Shown here one piece after another: positions 1 to 19,119 of a stretch of DNA of 64,000 bases. Location: assembly GCF_013167455.1 (NCBI RefSeq), contig NZ_CP038328.1; one strand, 5' to 3'. A program made the translations under genes and the position numbers. How positions within the stretch are numbered: position 1 is the first letter of the stretch; each line of letters opens with the position of its first letter. Under the pieces are notes generated by a model. That model saw only the letters and a list, made by a program, of their open reading frames with translations, ran no database searches and was not told where the DNA came from. This stretch comes from Escherichia coli O157:H7 (GTDB taxonomy: Bacteria > Pseudomonadota > Gammaproteobacteria > Enterobacterales > Enterobacteriaceae).

Positions 1-1
1 T

Positions 2-214
2 CAATTTACCGCAAACGTAACCGAAGGCCGTAACAGTGGGATGACGAAAAGAGAATATTATCAGCGACTTGATAACATGAACGGTAAGGCCGACGTCACC
101 CAGCAGATGATAACGCTCTATAAGACTTTTGTTGACTACGTATATGAACATCCAAAGCAAGACGCAAAGATTTCAGGGACGTATATTTATACTAACTGTA
201 TGAACAACTTCTAG
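2..214 (+). CDS. Hypothetical protein, C-terminal ~70 codons only (5' end lies outside the window)
   Basis: Stop-free reading frame from the window edge to TAG at 212-214, same strand and 151 bp upstream of the 366..1682 gene; no recognisable family from the fragment. Confidence 0.35.
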   Translation, partial: QFTANVTEGRNSGMTKREYYQRLDNMNGKADVTQQMITLYKTFVDYVYEHPKQDAKISGTYIYTNCMNNF

Positions 215-365
215 AAACGTAGGTGCCTGAACATGATAGAACTCAGCTGCCAGCATAGAGTGGAAAGCGGAGGCTTACCATCGTATATTCATCGCGTTAT
301 CTTTCCGTAACTATAATCTGTCTCAGTTGATCTAGTGCCTTTCAGGGCTGAACTAAGGAATAAAG

Positions 366-1682
366 ATGAATGACGGTGTTATGCTAGATTCTGACGTTAT
401 TGCTGGTCTTGAGTGGTTAGCATCAACTCAAGAGAACAAACAACACTTTTACCAGCGCTTAGCAAAAGCACAGCAATTTTACATAGCTACAACCCAAAAA
501 GCTGCCAATTTCGGGAAACAGTTTGACCCAGAATGGTATGGTTCCGACGTGGTTGCTGGTTATTTCGCACAAGCAAAATCGCTTATCGATAATAGAAGGT
601 CTTACGAAGTTACTAATGCTTCAAATATAATACCATGGGTTAAACAATTAGGAGTGTGTGCTAAATCGCTCGATAGAATTACTGGCGCTAGAGATCGCGC
701 AATCAGAATGCTTAAGAATACAACAGTATTACCAGACACAGCCTTATTAGAGTTGGTTCTTGCTGGAAACTATGCATCAGAAGGTTATGAAGTTGAGTTC
801 ATTCCAGAACAAAAAGGGATAGCAAAAACCCCGGAGTTTCGTTGCCGCCTTGGAGATGGCGATTATTTCTTTGTCGAATGCAAAAGGCTTCAGAAAGGTC
901 CTTACGTAAAGCAGGAAATATTACAGCATCATATACGCTCACATCTTGCCGAACTTCATATCAAATCCAAAAAGATGAACGTATGGACTGATGTCACATA
1001 TTTATGTGAAGTTAAAGACGCGCCTGAAAACTATATCATTAGCCACTTAAAAAACTTTAAAGGTGTATTTTATGAATGGAATGATGATTATGGAAAAGGA
1101 ACGATTAGACCGGCCAACTTAAATCTTATCAGGGAAGATATCACTGAAAACGGCTCATTACTAGTCAACACTAAACTTGCTCGTCTTATCAAAGGCTCCC
1201 CTCTGGAAGATGAAAATTACCAAGTTGTTGCTATGGGACGACCAGATGAGCGCGACTCACGTTTCATAACCAAAGTTAAACTTGCTTCTTTGATAACATG
1301 GCGTTGTATCAATGAAAAATCTTTCGATGCACGTTCGCGACATGTAACAAAAACATTAGCAGAGATAGATAACCAGCTTTTGGATTATGGTCTAGGCGTA
1401 GGGCATATAGCTTTGGATGTAGATATTCAAAAGGATGTTGCCGATAAACGAAGGGAAAAAAACTATGCTGCCATAGTAAATTTTGAGCAAAAATCTAAAA
1501 TAGTCCGCCTGAATGTTCATTATCTCGTGCCACGCATAGATGAGAACTCTGCGTGGATGGTAGATGAAACTGCGGATGACTTTTTTACCCATGATCTGGT
1601 CAAATATGTTATCCCATTGACTAAAATATTCCCCGAGGCTGAGGTATTTGAGAATGACCAACCTGGCTGGCATCAAAATTAA
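366..1682 (+). CDS. Hypothetical 438-aa protein; possible PD-(D/E)xK-like nuclease motif (E142/E144 ... D164/D166 ... E171-x-K173)
   Basis: Long ORF with ATG at 366 preceded by AAGGAA RBS-like sequence; motif GYEVEF...GDGDYFFVECK read directly from the translation; family assignment not possible without HMM search. Confidence 0.6.
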   Translation: MNDGVMLDSDVIAGLEWLASTQENKQHFYQRLAKAQQFYIATTQKAANFGKQFDPEWYGSDVVAGYFAQAKSLIDNRRSYEVTNASNIIPWVKQLGVCAKSLDRITGARDRAIRMLKNTTVLPDTALLELVLAGNYASEGYEVEFIPEQKGIAKTPEFRCRLGDGDYFFVECKRLQKGPYVKQEILQHHIRSHLAELHIKSKKMNVWTDVTYLCEVKDAPENYIISHLKNFKGVFYEWNDDYGKGTIRPANLNLIREDITENGSLLVNTKLARLIKGSPLEDENYQVVAMGRPDERDSRFITKVKLASLITWRCINEKSFDARSRHVTKTLAEIDNQLLDYGLGVGHIALDVDIQKDVADKRREKNYAAIVNFEQKSKIVRLNVHYLVPRIDENSAWMVDETADDFFTHDLVKYVIPLTKIFPEAEVFENDQPGWHQN

Positions 1683-1880
1683 TTTATTTTTGATAGTATG
1701 AACGAGGGTAGCATTTCTATACAAATCAGTGTTCGGCTGATAGCGAGTTAAACAGTTTACTGAAATGTTCTCAGCAATTAGCTGTTGCCAGGACCTCAAA
1801 AATCCGATTCTGGCGGAAAGTGTGCTGTTTTACCAAGTATTGCTCGTATCTGCAAAGTGTTAGAGCATGTTTTAAGTATA

Positions 1881-2450
1881 TCAGTAACCCTTATTCAGTA
1901 ATGCAGCAAGCGTCGCTCTTGAAACACCGTATTCACGCGCCAATGCGCTAACACTAACCCCAGCGGCCCTTTTGTCTAAAATCGCTCCACGAGCTTCCGG
2001 TGCGATTTTAGCAGGCCTGCCCAATTTCCTGCCTTCAGCTTTTGCCCGTAACAGCCCCGCATTAGTCCGTTCAATCAGCAGGTCACGCTCCATCTCCGCA
2101 ACCGCTGCTAGCATCGACAACAGGAGCTTACCGGCAGCAGAGGTGAGATCAGTGGTGCCAAGCTGATGGACAATAACCTTGATGTTTCGGTCAGCCAACG
2201 TCCTGACAGTTTGCAGAACGTCAATTGCATCACGCCCGAGGCGGTCCAGCTTTGCAACTACCAACGTTTCCCCATCGCGGATTTTGCTGAGCATTTCAAA
2301 AAACGCTTTGCGTTGCACCGCAGGAACCTTTCCGCTGACTACATCAGAAAACCAAAAGTCGAACGTCCACCCAGCTTGTTCAAGTTCCATGCGCTGGTTC
2401 TCAGTATCCTGCTGGGATGTCGAAACACGCCCGTAGCCAAAAATAGCCAT
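1881..2450 (-). CDS. Serine recombinase (resolvase/invertase family)
   Basis: N-terminus MAIFGYGRVSTSQQ contains the catalytic-serine motif typical of resolvase/invertase enzymes; C-terminal helix-turn-helix-like region; GGAGA RBS 6 nt upstream of the chosen ATG (ORF track extends 23 codons further upstream). Confidence 0.8.
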   Translation of the reverse strand: MAIFGYGRVSTSQQDTENQRMELEQAGWTFDFWFSDVVSGKVPAVQRKAFFEMLSKIRDGETLVVAKLDRLGRDAIDVLQTVRTLADRNIKVIVHQLGTTDLTSAAGKLLLSMLAAVAEMERDLLIERTNAGLLRAKAEGRKLGRPAKIAPEARGAILDKRAAGVSVSALAREYGVSRATLAALLNKGY

Positions 2451-4113: not shown

Positions 4114-4446
4114 TTGAGAACCGTCGAAATACTGCAATACACCTTACGCAAAGGCAGCGGTGCCGCTTTTCACGCCATAATGCAGGAAATCAGTGTTCCC
4201 CTACACCAAAGCCACGGGATCGATGTTGTTTCGTTTGGCAACTCGCTTGATGACCTGGATTGCTACTACTTGATTCGCGCCTTTGACAGCGCTAAAAGCA
4301 TGACTGCGGTTCTCGATGCTTTTTACGCAAGCGCAGACTGGCGCAGCGGCCCACGCGAAGACATCATTGGCAGCATAGAGAACTGCATTAAAACAGTGAT
4401 TAGCCTACCATCAGAAAGCGTGAAAGGGCTGCGGATGCAATCGTAA
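4114..4446 (+). CDS. NIPSNAP-like small protein (110 aa), TTG start
   Basis: ORF bounded by an in-frame TAA at 4108-4110; GGAG 9 nt upstream of TTG; sequence resembles NIPSNAP/Dabb-like small proteins. Confidence 0.45.
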   Translation: MRTVEILQYTLRKGSGAAFHAIMQEISVPLHQSHGIDVVSFGNSLDDLDCYYLIRAFDSAKSMTAVLDAFYASADWRSGPREDIIGSIENCIKTVISLPSESVKGLRMQS

Positions 4447-4567: not shown

Positions 4568-4945
4568 ATGAATTTAGATGAAGAATTTTACGAATTACAA
4601 AAACTCTTTGCTCAGAAGGATCTACTGACTGAGAAAAGACGCTCTAGTGGCGGCGGATTCATGGAAATTCTCTTGGTGAAGAGACAGAACATGAAGATAA
4701 AAATATATCAAGAAAAAGGACATCAACTTCCCCATATTCATATTGACTATGGAAAACAAGCGCATGCTGCCAGTTATGCCATACAATCAGGAGACCGCAT
4801 AGAGGGAGATTTACCTAAGAAATATGATAGTGATGTTTCGAGTTGGTTGGGGAGAAATCGTGATAAAATTTTAGAAATCTGGAATGCACTACAAGCTGGC
4901 GCACCTTATGAACCACTAATCGCAGAATTGACTGGCGGAGTGTGA
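4568..4945 (+). CDS. DUF4160-family protein with ~30-aa N-terminal extension
   Basis: Core ...KIKIYQEKGHQLPHIHIDYGKQ...GDLPKK...W... matches the DUF4160 signature (HxPHFH...Y.G); start uncertain (internal Met at residue 42 is an alternative). Confidence 0.5.
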   Translation: MNLDEEFYELQKLFAQKDLLTEKRRSSGGGFMEILLVKRQNMKIKIYQEKGHQLPHIHIDYGKQAHAASYAIQSGDRIEGDLPKKYDSDVSSWLGRNRDKILEIWNALQAGAPYEPLIAELTGGV

Positions 4946-6392: not shown

Positions 6393-8366
6393 TCACTTTC
6401 TTCGCAGCGCATCTCTTACAGCATCCAGCCCATCAGGAATGTTGAATCTCGCTATCTCGGGCAAAGAAAAATCAATCTTTTCGACAACCTCAACCATGTG
6501 AACCGGTTTTAAATCTTTGCTGTATCGCACTTCAGTTTCTGTTTTGCCTCGCACATGCCCAAGTAGCTGCCCACGCAGTTCCGAACTAACACCCTTCTCT
6601 TTAAGCAAAGTTGAAACAGAATGCCGGAAAGAGTGGAAAGATTTGCTTCTGTCTCTTTCAAGTTTTAATCGACCCGCAAGCAATGATTCATTGAACCATG
6701 CGGAAACCGGCCTACCATAGCCTTTGGTTTTATGTGGTTTAAGCTCGGGAAAAAGACGGTCATACCCGGCAGCTTTCAACGCATCCACATACTCGATAAA
6801 ACCGAGTTCAATCAGCGTAGAATGAACCGGAATCTTGCGGCGGGAATTGGCGTTTTTTAGTTTCTTTCCGTTTTCGCTATCGCTTTCAAGGTTCAGGTAA
6901 TAAACGCCGTCATCTGCCAGAACATCGTCCAGCATTAACTGTGCAATCTCGTTAACCCTTGCCCCCGTCATCAAGCCCAACAACGGCGCCCAATAGTGAA
7001 ACGGGCAATATTGATGGAATCGCCCTTGCGCATTACGTTCAACAGTTCCAGCGACAAACCACGGTTGCGAAAAAATTGCCTTAATTTCATGCGGTTCAAA
7101 TATGTCAGTGTGATCCTGCTCTCGCTCACCTTTGTCATCGGGAGGGAAAAAGTTGTCGCATGGCGATTTCAGAAACTTACCATCATCAACAGCCCACTCC
7201 ATTGCACCATAAAGGCCGTTGATATACTTTTTGACAGACTCTTCTGTCATCAGTTTATCGCCACATTCTGCCGCTTTGGCGATTAACTCATCCAGCGTCT
7301 TAACCCCGTGCTTACCTTTCATCAAATTACGGTTAGCAGGAATTGTGCGCAACTTGCTCTCATAAGCCCGGAGGAAATCACGGTCGAAATCTTCCAACTG
7401 AATATCCCCCATCACTTCAATCATCAAATCGAAGTAATAGCGAATATCGCGGAGCGCCGCTTCTGATACCTTGCCCTTACGTCGATGTTTCAAATACTCT
7501 TCACGAAGCCATGACAAGTTTTCATTGTAATGTTTGCGGTGAACATATTCATTAGCGATAACAGGAGCGACAAGAGGCACGGCAGGGTGAATGCTAACTG
7601 CTGGTGGCGTGGTCTTAACCAGCCATGTAAGTCGAAGGCCTTCAGCATGAACTTTGCTAATCAACAGGCTATCAGCAGTTATATCTACGCCGGGTAAATC
7701 GAAGAACCAACCTCCACTTTGGTTATCACCACTAGTTCGAAATGCAGCCTCTCCTTCGGATACTCCAGCGCTCAACAGACAATCTAAAGTATGCCGGGGA
7801 TTGAAGGGGCGGAGATAACCATTTGCGAAGCTCTCGATACCCAGCTCAAACGCGCTATTGAGAATGATGACTTCTTTAGGTTGATCCTTTTCATCATCAG
7901 ACTGTTTTTCTCGTTTTGCACCCGGTTCCCGCTCTACTGCATTAAATTCATCAACATAGAAACCGAACTGACCAGTCGCCAGCCAGAATACCGGGAGGTT
8001 ACGATTAACCACCTCTCGAATCAATTGCGATATAGGCAACTCGATTGATTGAGCAAAGTTAGAAAGCGAGATCATACCCTCACCAGCAAGCAGTGGGGCG
8101 CAGTCACTTAAAGTTCGATAATCCAATTGTTCATACTCTTGTAAGGTCTGATACCAGACCGCCAACAGGAGCGCGGACTTCTGCTTTGCTTCATGAAGAT
8201 CGTGAGTGCCTGTTGAAGTGTGAATCTCACACTGTCCTGCGTATCGACGAAAACGTTGGGGAACGCTAATGCGGACAACATAAATGCCGCTGGTTCGACG
8301 ATAGAGTTTATATCGCTGAGACATCGCCTCGTATACCCTTTTGTAAGAGGGGCTACGCGATTTCAA
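6393..8366 (-). CDS. Tyrosine-type site-specific integrase (657 aa) of the leuX island
   Basis: C-terminal catalytic signature (R...HSFRHS...HVRGKTETEVRY); same strand as and immediately 3' of tRNA-Leu; stop codon coincides with the last 3 bp of the IS element. Confidence 0.85.
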   Translation of the reverse strand: MKSRSPSYKRVYEAMSQRYKLYRRTSGIYVVRISVPQRFRRYAGQCEIHTSTGTHDLHEAKQKSALLLAVWYQTLQEYEQLDYRTLSDCAPLLAGEGMISLSNFAQSIELPISQLIREVVNRNLPVFWLATGQFGFYVDEFNAVEREPGAKREKQSDDEKDQPKEVIILNSAFELGIESFANGYLRPFNPRHTLDCLLSAGVSEGEAAFRTSGDNQSGGWFFDLPGVDITADSLLISKVHAEGLRLTWLVKTTPPAVSIHPAVPLVAPVIANEYVHRKHYNENLSWLREEYLKHRRKGKVSEAALRDIRYYFDLMIEVMGDIQLEDFDRDFLRAYESKLRTIPANRNLMKGKHGVKTLDELIAKAAECGDKLMTEESVKKYINGLYGAMEWAVDDGKFLKSPCDNFFPPDDKGEREQDHTDIFEPHEIKAIFSQPWFVAGTVERNAQGRFHQYCPFHYWAPLLGLMTGARVNEIAQLMLDDVLADDGVYYLNLESDSENGKKLKNANSRRKIPVHSTLIELGFIEYVDALKAAGYDRLFPELKPHKTKGYGRPVSAWFNESLLAGRLKLERDRSKSFHSFRHSVSTLLKEKGVSSELRGQLLGHVRGKTETEVRYSKDLKPVHMVEVVEKIDFSLPEIARFNIPDGLDAVRDALRRK

Positions 8367-8414
8367 GCAAGATTATGAATTAAATTGTTTTAAAACAATA
8401 GTTTAGATGAGTCT

Positions 8415-8499
8415 TGGTGCCGAAGGCCGGACTCGAACCGGCACGTATTTCTACGGTTGATTTTGAATCAACTGCGTCTACCGATTTCGCCACTTCGGC
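8415..8499 (-). tRNA. leuX: tRNA-Leu (anticodon CAA)
   Basis: Reverse complement reads GCCGAAGTGGCGAAATCGGTAGACGCAGTTGATTCAAAATCAACC...GGTTCGAGTCCGGCCTTCGGCACCA: cloverleaf-compatible, CAA anticodon loop, CCA end. Confidence 0.9.
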
Positions 8500-8694
8500 A
8501 CTGAAGAGGTATGCGGAAAACGTTGTGGATTATACCTGTCGCACGCCACCATGCAAGCGCCAGCTTGCTCGCACCTCGCTAAGTGCTGAAATTTTCAGCA
8601 TTGCATACAGCGATGTGTAACCTTTGTCACACTCCAGGCACCCCGCCCTGCCATGCTCTACACTTCCCAAACAACACCAGAGAAGGACCAAAAA

Positions 8695-16264: not shown

Positions 16265-19119
16265 TGGAAAAGACATATAACCCACAAGATATCGAACAGC
16301 CGCTTTACGAGCACTGGGAAAAGCAGGGCTACTTTAAGCCTAATGGCGATGAAAGCCAGAAAAGTTTCTGCATCATGATCCCGCCGCCGAACGTCACCGG
16401 CAGTTTGCATATGGGTCACGCCTTCCAGCAAACCATCATGGATACCATGATCCGCTATCAGCGCATGCAGGGCAAAAACACCCTGTGGCAGGTCGGTACT
16501 GACCACGCCGGGATCGCTACCCAGATGGTCGTTGAGCGCAAGATTGCCGCAGAAGAAGGTAAAACCCGTCACGACTACGGCCGCGAAGCTTTCATCGACA
16601 AAATCTGGGAATGGAAAGCGGAATCCGGCGGCACGATTACCCGTCAGATGCGCCGTCTCGGCAACTCCGTCGACTGGGAACGTGAACGCTTCACGATGGA
16701 CGAAGGCCTGTCCAATGCGGTGAAAGAAGTTTTCGTTCGTCTATATAAAGAAGACCTGATTTACCGTGGCAAACGCCTGGTAAACTGGGACCCGAAACTG
16801 CGCACCGCTATCTCTGACCTGGAAGTGGAAAACCGCGAATCGAAAGGTTCGATGTGGCACATCCGCTATCCGCTGGCTGACGGTGCGAAAACCGCAGACG
16901 GTAAAGATTATCTGGTGGTCGCGACTACCCGTCCGGAAACCCTGCTGGGCGATACTGGCGTAGCCGTTAACCCGGAAGATCCGCGTTACAAAGATCTGAT
17001 TGGCAAATATGTCATTCTGCCGCTGGTTAACCGTCGTATTCCGATCGTTGGCGACGAACACGCCGACATGGAAAAAGGCACCGGCTGCGTGAAAATCACT
17101 CCGGCGCACGACTTTAACGACTATGAAGTGGGTAAACGTCACGCGCTGCCGATGATCAACATCCTGACCTTTGACGGCGATATCCGTGAAAGCGCCCAGG
17201 TGTTCGATACCAAAGGTAACGAATCTGACGTTTATTCCAGCGAAATCCCGGCAGAGTTCCAGAAACTCGAGCGTTTTGCTGCACGTAAAGCGGTCGTTGC
17301 TGCGGTTGACGCACTCGGCCTGCTGGAAGAAATTAAACCGCACGACCTGACAGTTCCTTACGGCGACCGTGGCGGCGTAGTTATCGAACCAATGCTGACC
17401 GACCAGTGGTACGTACGTGCCGATGTACTGGCGAAGCCGGCAGTTGAAGCGGTTGAGAACGGCGACATTCAGTTCGTACCGAAGCAGTACGAAAACATGT
17501 ACTTCTCCTGGATGCGCGATATTCAGGACTGGTGTATCTCTCGTCAGCTGTGGTGGGGTCACCGTATCCCGGCATGGTACGACGAAGCGGGTAACGTTTA
17601 TGTTGGCCGCAACGAAGAAGAAGTGCGCAAGGAAAATAACCTCGGTGCCGACGTTGCCCTGCGTCAGGACGAAGACGTTCTCGACACCTGGTTCTCTTCT
17701 GCGCTGTGGACCTTCTCTACCCTAGGCTGGCCGGAAAACACCGACGCACTGCGCCAGTTCCACCCAACCAGCGTGATGGTATCTGGTTTCGACATCATCT
17801 TCTTCTGGATTGCCCGCATGATCATGATGACCATGCACTTCATCAAAGATGAAAATGGCAAACCGCAGGTGCCGTTCCACACCGTTTACATGACCGGTCT
17901 GATTCGTGACGACGAAGGCCAGAAGATGTCCAAATCCAAGGGTAACGTTATCGACCCGCTGGATATGGTTGACGGTATTTCGCTGCCAGAACTGCTGGAA
18001 AAACGTACCGGCAATATGATGCAGCCGCAGCTGGCGGACAAAATCCGTAAGCGCACCGAGAAGCAGTTCCCGAACGGTATTGAGCCGCACGGCACCGATG
18101 CCCTGCGCTTCACCCTGGCGGCACTGGCGTCTACCGGTCGTGACATCAACTGGGATATGAAGCGTCTGGAAGGCTACCGTAACTTCTGTAACAAGCTGTG
18201 GAACGCCAGCCGCTTTGTGCTGATGAACACGGAAGGTCAGGATTGCGGCTTCAACGGCGGCGAAATGACGCTGTCGCTGGCGGACCGCTGGATTCTGGCG
18301 GAGTTCAACCAGACCATCAAAGCGTACCGCGAAGCGCTGGACAGCTTCCGCTTCGATATCGCCGCAGGCATTCTGTATGAGTTTACCTGGAACCAGTTCT
18401 GTGACTGGTATCTCGAGCTGACCAAGCCGGTAATGAACGGTGGCACCGAAGCAGAACTGCGCGGTACTCGCCATACGCTGGTGACTGTACTGGAAGGTCT
18501 GCTGCGCCTCGCGCATCCGATCATTCCGTTCATCACCGAAACCATCTGGCAGCGTGTGAAAGTACTTTGCGGTATCACTGCCGACACCATCATGCTGCAG
18601 CCGTTCCCGCAGTACGATGCATCTCAGGTTGATGAAGCCGCACTGGCCGACACCGAATGGCTGAAACAGGCGATCGTTGCGGTACGTAACATCCGTGCAG
18701 AAATGAACATCGCGCCGGGCAAACCGCTGGAGCTGCTGCTGCGTGGTTGCAGCGCGGATGCAGAACGTCGCGTAAATGAAAACCGTGGCTTCCTGCAAAC
18801 CCTGGCGCGTCTGGAAAGCATCACCGTGCTGCCTGCCGATGACAAAGGTCCGGTTTCCGTTACGAAGATCATCGACGGCGCAGAGCTGCTGATCCCGATG
18901 GCTGGCCTCATCAACAAAGAAGATGAGCTGGCGCGTCTGGCGAAAGAAGTGGCGAAGATCGAAGGCGAAATCAGCCGTATCGAGAACAAGCTGGCGAATG
19001 AAGGCTTTGTCGCCCGCGCACCGGAAGCGGTCATCGCGAAAGAGCGTGAGAAGCTGGAAGGCTATGCGGAAGCGAAAGCGAAGCTGATTGAACAGCAGGC
19101 TGTTATCGCCGCGCTGTAA
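16264..19119 (+). CDS. valS: Valine--tRNA ligase
   Basis: 951-aa translation with HMGH and KMSKS class-I synthetase motifs. Confidence 0.95.

Follow-up and report, generated by a model that had tools for sequence, protein, structure and literature searches.

The locus

We have analyzed a stretch of 64,000 nucleotides (the window) of Escherichia coli O157:H7 (assembly GCF_013167455.1, contig NZ_CP038328.1). Close to its left edge, inside an integrative element inserted at the tRNA gene leuX, is a gene coding for a protein of 438 amino acids (aa) that, as we describe here, is probably a stand-alone defence nuclease. This open reading frame (ORF) had been the subject of an original prediction made from the letters of the window, and its limits were confirmed: it starts at an ATG with an AAGGA Shine-Dalgarno motif (355–359) located 6 nt before it. 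The co-directional ORF that had been seen cut by the window edge codes for a 257-aa hypothetical protein and does end 151 bp upstream of the nuclease gene. The coordinates of all the features are collected in Table 1. The first 1.8 kb of the window were 100% identical across O157:H7 chromosomes and were found as a single copy in 228 of 5,426 complete E. coli genomes. A variant with 60–80% identity appeared in six more, giving 234 genomes in all with one copy each. On the minus strand, an ORF of 135 aa (1392..1799) runs antisense across the 3' end of the nuclease gene; with neither annotation nor other evidence in its favor, it is probably spurious.

The gene is located in O-island 172 (OI-172). 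The neighbors that had been listed for it (tRNA-Leu, an integrase, a serine recombinase and IS1203) are all nearby, but its placement at the distal end of the leuX island was inaccurate. We found that the last 26 bp of leuX are repeated exactly, in direct orientation, beside an integrase remnant, 1.66 kb to the left of the window and 10.2 kb from leuX (positions 18344–18369 of L001, the O157 locus). This repeat indicates that in OI-172 two elements integrated at leuX lie in tandem and that the window starts inside the proximal one, of ca. 10.3 kb. The order of genes in this proximal element is integrase, IS1203, DUF4160, NIPSNAP, DUF1643, resolvase, nuclease, 257-aa gene and HTH (helix-turn-helix) gene, while Zorya, Druantia and ARMADA are part of the composite island beyond it.

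A conserved nuclease core in a family without a name

No recognizable family had been proposed for the 438-aa protein, and the searches bear this out. Pfam (searched also with 49 members of the family), NCBIfam, PADLOC and the PDB sequences (phmmer/hmmsearch) gave no significant match, and the sole named match was phrog_37220, annotated as of function unknown. PADLOC v2 gave 0 matches with the E. coli protein (E ≤ 1) and likewise 0 with three distant members (E ≤ 0.01). The family itself comprises 58 clusters at 90% identity and about 291 representatives at 50% identity, and nearly all its full-length members are 425–470 aa long and match from end to end. They are known from soil, plant, aquatic and metagenomic bacteria, plasmids and phages, and the distant members were found on 62 plasmids, 52 of them conjugative. 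In the literature that we searched the protein was not described beyond a signature-tagged mutagenesis note, and no experiment on phage or plasmid resistance was found.

Two independent lines of evidence, conservation and a structural model, support a nuclease fold in the central part of the protein. We compared 49 homologs, diverging to about 20% identity. E129, E171 and E184 were each present in 49/49 and K173 in 48/49, while position 157 was acidic in all of them (D in 44, E in 5) and preceded by P156 in 29. The true motif reads E129 ... P156-(D/E)157 ... E171-x-K173, with E184 added on the helix that follows. A confident AlphaFold2 model made from the family alignment (predicted local distance difference test, pLDDT, 91; predicted template modelling score, pTM, 0.89) places the conserved residues on a helix-strand-strand-strand-helix-strand core spanning aa 124–212. 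In this model the core consists of a helix (124–138), three strands (142–145, 158–161 and 168–175), a second helix (179–201) and a final strand (206–212). These are the features that define the PD-(D/E)xK superfamily, i.e., an alpha-beta-beta-beta-alpha-beta core fold with an acidic residue on strand 2, (D/E)xK on strand 3 and usually a Glu on helix 1. The bare motif cannot be taken as evidence, since an acidic...(D/E)xK pattern was present in 991 of 1000 composition-preserving shuffles of the protein; it is the invariance together with the predicted fold that makes it real. We conclude that the protein, as modelled, is built around a restriction-endonuclease-fold core with an intact and strongly constrained catalytic set. 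The fold in the original prediction was thus supported, whereas two-thirds of its active-site residues were wrong: E171 and K173 stand, but the D164 column is a gapped loop in 36/49 homologs, an Asp at position 166 is found in no more than 3/49, and positions 142 and 144 vary freely. Foldseek returned only a local VRR-NUC match (probability 0.85), and sub-threshold Mrr_cat matches appeared in 4 of the 49 members at E ≤ 0.1 (best 5.9e-3) and in none at E ≤ 0.001.

The core is flanked by two other domains. The C-terminal region is large and of unknown nature, as had been stated; the nuclease had been placed at the N-terminus and is in fact central, because a conserved all-helical domain of 120 aa precedes it (W17, R31, D61, P90, G96 and R111 conserved at ≥90%). 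Q337, H347 and E401, in the C-terminal region, are invariant family-wide. The mean family net charge of the C-terminal domain is about −6, i.e., acidic, and that of the N-terminal domain is near neutral. A profile of the C-terminal domain found no match, and no recognizable solved fold, among PDB sequences, and the profile made from 25 sequences found no other architecture, only fragments of the same family. Neither a DNA-modification reader domain nor CARF or SAVED was detected in the 438-aa protein. Weak CdiA-CT and NucC matches were obtained for the C-terminal half. We also considered this half as a degenerate second nuclease and rejected the idea for lack of evidence (≤5.6% probability in hhalign comparisons of core and C-terminal sub-profiles).

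The upstream gene and the element that carries the nuclease

The original prediction had taken the 257-aa and 438-aa genes as a two-gene operon or cassette, and we have examined in how many independent genomes the pair occurs. The 257-aa protein has a family of its own, with 59 clusters in Enterobacterales, mostly of 250 aa. By tblastn against all the fetched loci it adjoins the nuclease only in O157 and in one other locus, L008. The two loci share just a 5-kb block with 91% nucleotide identity (the nuclease proteins are 97% identical), and on account of this identity they must be counted as one cassette and not as independent occurrences. The L008 contig (CACSKA010000005.1) is labelled Chryseobacterium sp. 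18061; it has 49% G+C and its 5-kb block is 91% identical to E. coli O157 DNA, and it is probably not genuine Chryseobacterium but a contaminant or a mislabelled assembly.

That the two proteins form one system appears to us highly improbable. The genes are co-directional and 151 bp apart, no terminator-like site was found between them, and the pair is also adjacent in L008. Yet L008 is the same cassette. The 257-aa protein was absent by tblastn within ±6–8 kb of the other ~14 dereplicated close-clade nuclease loci, and at ~10 later distant-clade loci, on which tblastn was not run, the annotation shows nothing like it. Where its homologs are found they adjoin AbiU/AIPR, PDC-M18 or nothing. Besides, it has a signal-peptide-like N-terminus (MSKTRLSKPGFSAKSVLTIMLIAASSASYA/AE) and is, judging from this segment, probably exported, while the nuclease has no such segment, and the G+C content at third codon positions (GC3) is 0.49 for the upstream gene vs. 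0.33 for the nuclease gene. The promoter/terminator scan of the gap did not rise above chance and so does not bear on whether the two genes are transcribed together. It gave a single weak sigma-70-like site (window ~261–289, 9/12 matches) and no terminator 3' of the upstream gene, and over the 2.8-kb region scanned promoter-like sites were not more frequent than in shuffled sequences. The two genes may be co-transcribed in O157. In most homologs the upstream protein is 250 aa long; the O157 copy reaches 257 aa through a tandem 7-aa duplication (NNNKDQM NNNKDQM, L001 19945–19986).

A better explanation of the arrangement came from the homologs of the upstream gene. Their flanks never change: a divergent HTH gene on one side and the resolvase on the other, with a large DUF6538-type integrase beyond. 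We have surveyed three clusters of these sister elements (nine loci, L040–L048), and the place that the nuclease occupies in O157 is filled by other genes or empty (Table 1). The nuclease was present in neither of the two other filled-slot backbone variants sampled, counted at the level of clusters. From this variable content it follows that the upstream gene belongs to the element backbone, paired with the nuclease in one cassette only, and that the nuclease is one of the interchangeable cargoes of a defence slot. Its position is that of the operational class "defence-hotspot cargo", i.e., a variable locus between backbone genes with alternative defence alleles. AbiU/AIPR and PDC-M18 are thus positional equivalents of the nuclease, in the identical slot from the 250-aa backbone gene to the resolvase, although unrelated to it in sequence and domains; AbiU is a described abortive-infection family, while PDC-M18 is a candidate system only.

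Other flanking cargo of the sister elements includes PDC-S49-like, methyl-directed restriction endonuclease (REase)-like, BrxL and ParE/RelB genes. In the O157 element (window 4568..4945 and 4114..4446) the DUF4160 gene has a GC3 of 0.32, as low as that of the nuclease gene, and its neighbors NIPSNAP and DUF1643 have values of 0.57 and 0.54, so that the cargo is compositionally mosaic.

Table 1. Features of the nuclease gene and its element, and content of the equivalent slot in sister elements. Positions are those of the window unless stated otherwise.
Feature	Position	Strand	Remarks
3' end of upstream 257-aa gene	1..214	+	full gene L001 19441–20214
Intergenic gap upstream of nuclease gene	215..365	+	151 bp
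438-aa nuclease gene	366..1682	+	438 codons, ATG at 366
N-terminal all-helical domain	366..725	+	aa 1–120; predicted, AlphaFold2 secondary structure
PD-(D/E)xK nuclease core (predicted)	726..1010	+	aa 121–215
Catalytic codons (predicted)	E129 750–752; P156-E157 831–836; E171-C172-K173 876–884; E184 915–917	+
C-terminal alpha/beta region	1011..1679	+	aa 216–438, about 225 aa
Invariant residues of C-terminal region	Q337 1374–1376; H347 1404–1406; E401 1566–1568	+
Gene conserved in sister elements	1881..2450	-	83–94% identity in all sister elements
Gene at position of sister-element integrase	6541..8490	-	large DUF6538+Phage_integrase gene at same position in sister elements; C-terminus 85% identical in Yersinia loci
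tRNA-Leu (leuX), attachment site	8581..8665	-
Slot between 250-aa gene and resolvase, O157 and L008	215..1880 (O157)		438-aa nuclease
Slot, L040–42			591-aa AIPR protein, PADLOC AbiU match E 1e-30
Slot, L043–45 (Yersinia)			empty; resolvase 10 bp downstream
Slot, L046–48 (Klebsiella)			candidate pair PDC-M18A/B

Company of the family in other genomes

We have examined about 25 dereplicated loci of the family, counting defence neighbors within about 6 kb. Recognized defence, restriction-modification (R-M) or DNA-modification genes were found near about 16 of the 25, and at three loci nothing recognizable was nearby. The defence neighbors included Gabija, AbiV, PDC-S06, HsdR, IetAS, a Mokosh-like helicase, a short prokaryotic Argonaute (pAgo) plus Aga-REase, and AbiH, besides Iet-like and Gabija-like pairs identified by annotation. 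Among the R-M neighbors there were a type II methyltransferase, a type I REase and a 972-aa DNA methyltransferase, and at one locus a Type ISP enzyme ends 4 bp upstream of the family member. Two cases involve phosphorothioation (PT) or Ssp genes. In a Rhizobium leguminosarum plasmid (L024 4679–7299) a distant member starts 27 bp after the gene of a "DNA phosphorothioation-associated DGQHR protein 1", next to dndBCD, and in Agrobacterium sp. T29 a member is located beside SspB, cysteine desulfurase and ATPase genes, plus PifA. These members may represent a PT-linked sub-clade, or their location may be mere co-location in defence islands.

Five of the loci correspond to accessory slots of prophages or phages. 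In at least four prophage lineages (Klebsiella, E. coli Ec42 and IMG/VR prophages) the nuclease gene is found 37–59 bp downstream of the integrase. The P2-like Escherichia phage 899 carries a family member between the tail-fibre-assembly and the tail-sheath genes, which we take to be the Z/fun variable locus. Two variable P2 loci have been described as carrying anti-phage genes (Rousset et al., PMC9122126). A second hypothetical gene, of 348 aa, is present in the same tail-fibre/tail-sheath locus of phage 899 (L031 7480–8526). Taken together, the neighbors and slots of the family loci support the defence-type setting that had been suggested from the O157 sequence.

In these varied surroundings the nuclease is always a single gene with one and the same three-domain build, and no conserved partner accompanies it. 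Across 18 nuclease loci no neighbor recurred except integrases and prophage backbone genes, and no conserved methyltransferase, small antitoxin or immunity gene was found to recur beside it. Partners conserved in distant clades, such as the Rhizobium DGQHR protein, were not seen at the other loci sampled.

This distribution bears on the idea that the nuclease serves the mobile element itself, by addiction or post-segregational killing, recombination or junction resolution, entry exclusion, or as a TnsA-like transposition endonuclease. Members of the family are practically confined to prophages, integrative elements, conjugative plasmids and a P2-like phage, an integrase is their sole recurrent neighbor, and three of them are named "transposase" by the Prokaryotic Genome Annotation Pipeline (PGAP). 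Nevertheless, we regard this explanation as unlikely. The gene is dispensable cargo, given that the slot of the sister elements holds other genes or nothing, and in phages it sits in accessory loci and not in replication or recombination modules. There is no TnsB/C-type or other conserved partner, terminal inverted repeats were not found, and each of the 234 E. coli genomes has a single copy. The name has no NCBIfam model behind it either: the three proteins, all from Rhizobiales plasmids (L024, L025 and L027) and named so by RefSeq/PGAP, match no NCBIfam or Pfam transposase model, and the label is probably a propagated mis-annotation. A transposase or insertion sequence (IS) reading was rejected on the same grounds of copy number, lack of flanking inverted repeats and lack of a model.

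A role in cattle colonization or virulence of O157:H7, unrelated to defence against mobile DNA, is in our opinion very improbable. The claim of a colonization role is second-hand, and polar or secondary effects readily arise in single signature-tagged mutants. The family extends over soil, plant, aquatic and metagenomic bacteria, plasmids and phages and is not specific to gut pathogens, and a nuclease without a signal-peptide-like N-terminus has no obvious route to interact with the host. If the calf phenotype is real, it could, speculatively, reflect phage pressure in the gut.

A probable stand-alone defence nuclease and its possible mode of action

The constrained core, the exchangeable slot shared with AbiU and the company of the family elsewhere argue for a defence nuclease that acts alone, which is the function we consider probable. 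Several facts weigh against it. All the functional evidence is positional, and the cargo slots of mobile elements carry non-defence genes as well. PADLOC v2 does not recognize the family, and the systems that DefenseFinder identified in a preprint on OI-172, three only on the island and all at z5894–z5902, do not include the nuclease. The E. coli protein has a Glu at position 157 instead of the usual Asp, a trait shown by 5 of the 49 homologs in the broad comparison. A consistently basic character is lacking in both flanking domains, and the gating role that we propose below for the C-terminal domain is one that we purely infer.

The core would cleave nucleic acid, most likely DNA, by Mg2+-dependent PD-(D/E)xK chemistry. 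As nothing else protects the host, the protein must keep its own activity in check. The N-terminal helical and the acidic C-terminal domains would hold the nuclease off until a cue of infection arrives, with Q337, H347 and E401 as a possible ligand- or protein-binding site, and the released nuclease would then cut the phage DNA, or that of both phage and host. We favor this self-gated, infection-triggered mode, tentatively, for two reasons. The large conserved flanking domains, non-basic and with invariant polar residues, look regulatory or sensing rather than DNA-reading, and abortive-infection genes such as AbiU are among those that take the equivalent position in sister elements.

The main alternative to self-gating concerns the mode of action and not the role in defence. 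The protein could be a type IV-like, modification-dependent restriction enzyme that directly cuts foreign modified DNA, e.g., carrying hydroxymethylcytosine (hmC), glucosyl-hmC, N6-methyladenine (6mA) or phosphorothioate. Such an enzyme would need neither a methyltransferase nor an immunity gene, because the target modification is lacking in the host, and this fits a stand-alone PD-(D/E)xK protein without a conserved methyltransferase. Type IV enzymes do occur on prophages, McrA of e14 being one of them. The only Pfam signal obtained was the weak Mrr_cat, and the neighbors are frequently of the DNA-modification or R-M type (dndBCD plus DGQHR, Ssp genes, Type ISP, large DNA methyltransferases). 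However, Mrr_cat is not matched by any of the 49 members at E ≤ 0.001, flanking domains that are neutral to acidic on family average would be unusual for a DNA-reading domain, and PT or R-M neighbors are to be expected of any gene of a defence island. Direct cutting of modified DNA is thus conceivable, with a lower probability than the self-gated mode.

We have also compared the protein with the closest known systems. Mrr-type and other type IV enzymes (Mrr_cat, PF04471) resemble the 438-aa protein in being stand-alone PD-(D/E)xK nucleases with extra domains and no cognate methyltransferase. In them the nuclease is C-terminal, while here it is central, the Mrr_cat match is never significant and no modification-reader domain is recognized. 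Shedu SduA (PDB 8ps4) has another domain order and unrelated flanking domains, and the 438-aa protein gives no match to the DUF4263/Shedu profile hidden Markov models of Pfam and PADLOC. NucC, Can2/Card1 and Cap4-type nucleases (PDB 6p7p, 7zgv, 7bdv, 8bao) need a partner that makes cyclic oligonucleotides, in the cyclic-oligonucleotide-based antiphage signalling system (CBASS) or in type III CRISPR. The 438-aa protein has no conserved neighbor of this kind, and CARF and SAVED went undetected in it. The last group, AF1548 (PDB 1y88), the CdiA-CT DNase/tRNase toxins (4g6v, 4g6u) and the archaeal Hjc resolvases, is made up of small proteins with a single domain or of toxin tips paired with an immunity protein; they have 10–17% identity to the 438-aa protein and lack its N- and C-terminal domains.

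A stand-alone nuclease in a defence hotspot is a familiar kind of finding, and the value of one more is moderate, as many members of this class remain candidates only. What is undescribed here is the family, its flanking domains and its control. If our reading is true, the catalogue of defence would gain a compact one-gene system in which a domain of unknown fold would serve for sensing or regulation. The nuclease would also be a fourth defence function for OI-172 in O157:H7, a strain whose resistance to phages restricts their use in control and detection. The leuX-type integrative elements, with one exchangeable defence slot, are a compact place for mining further candidates.

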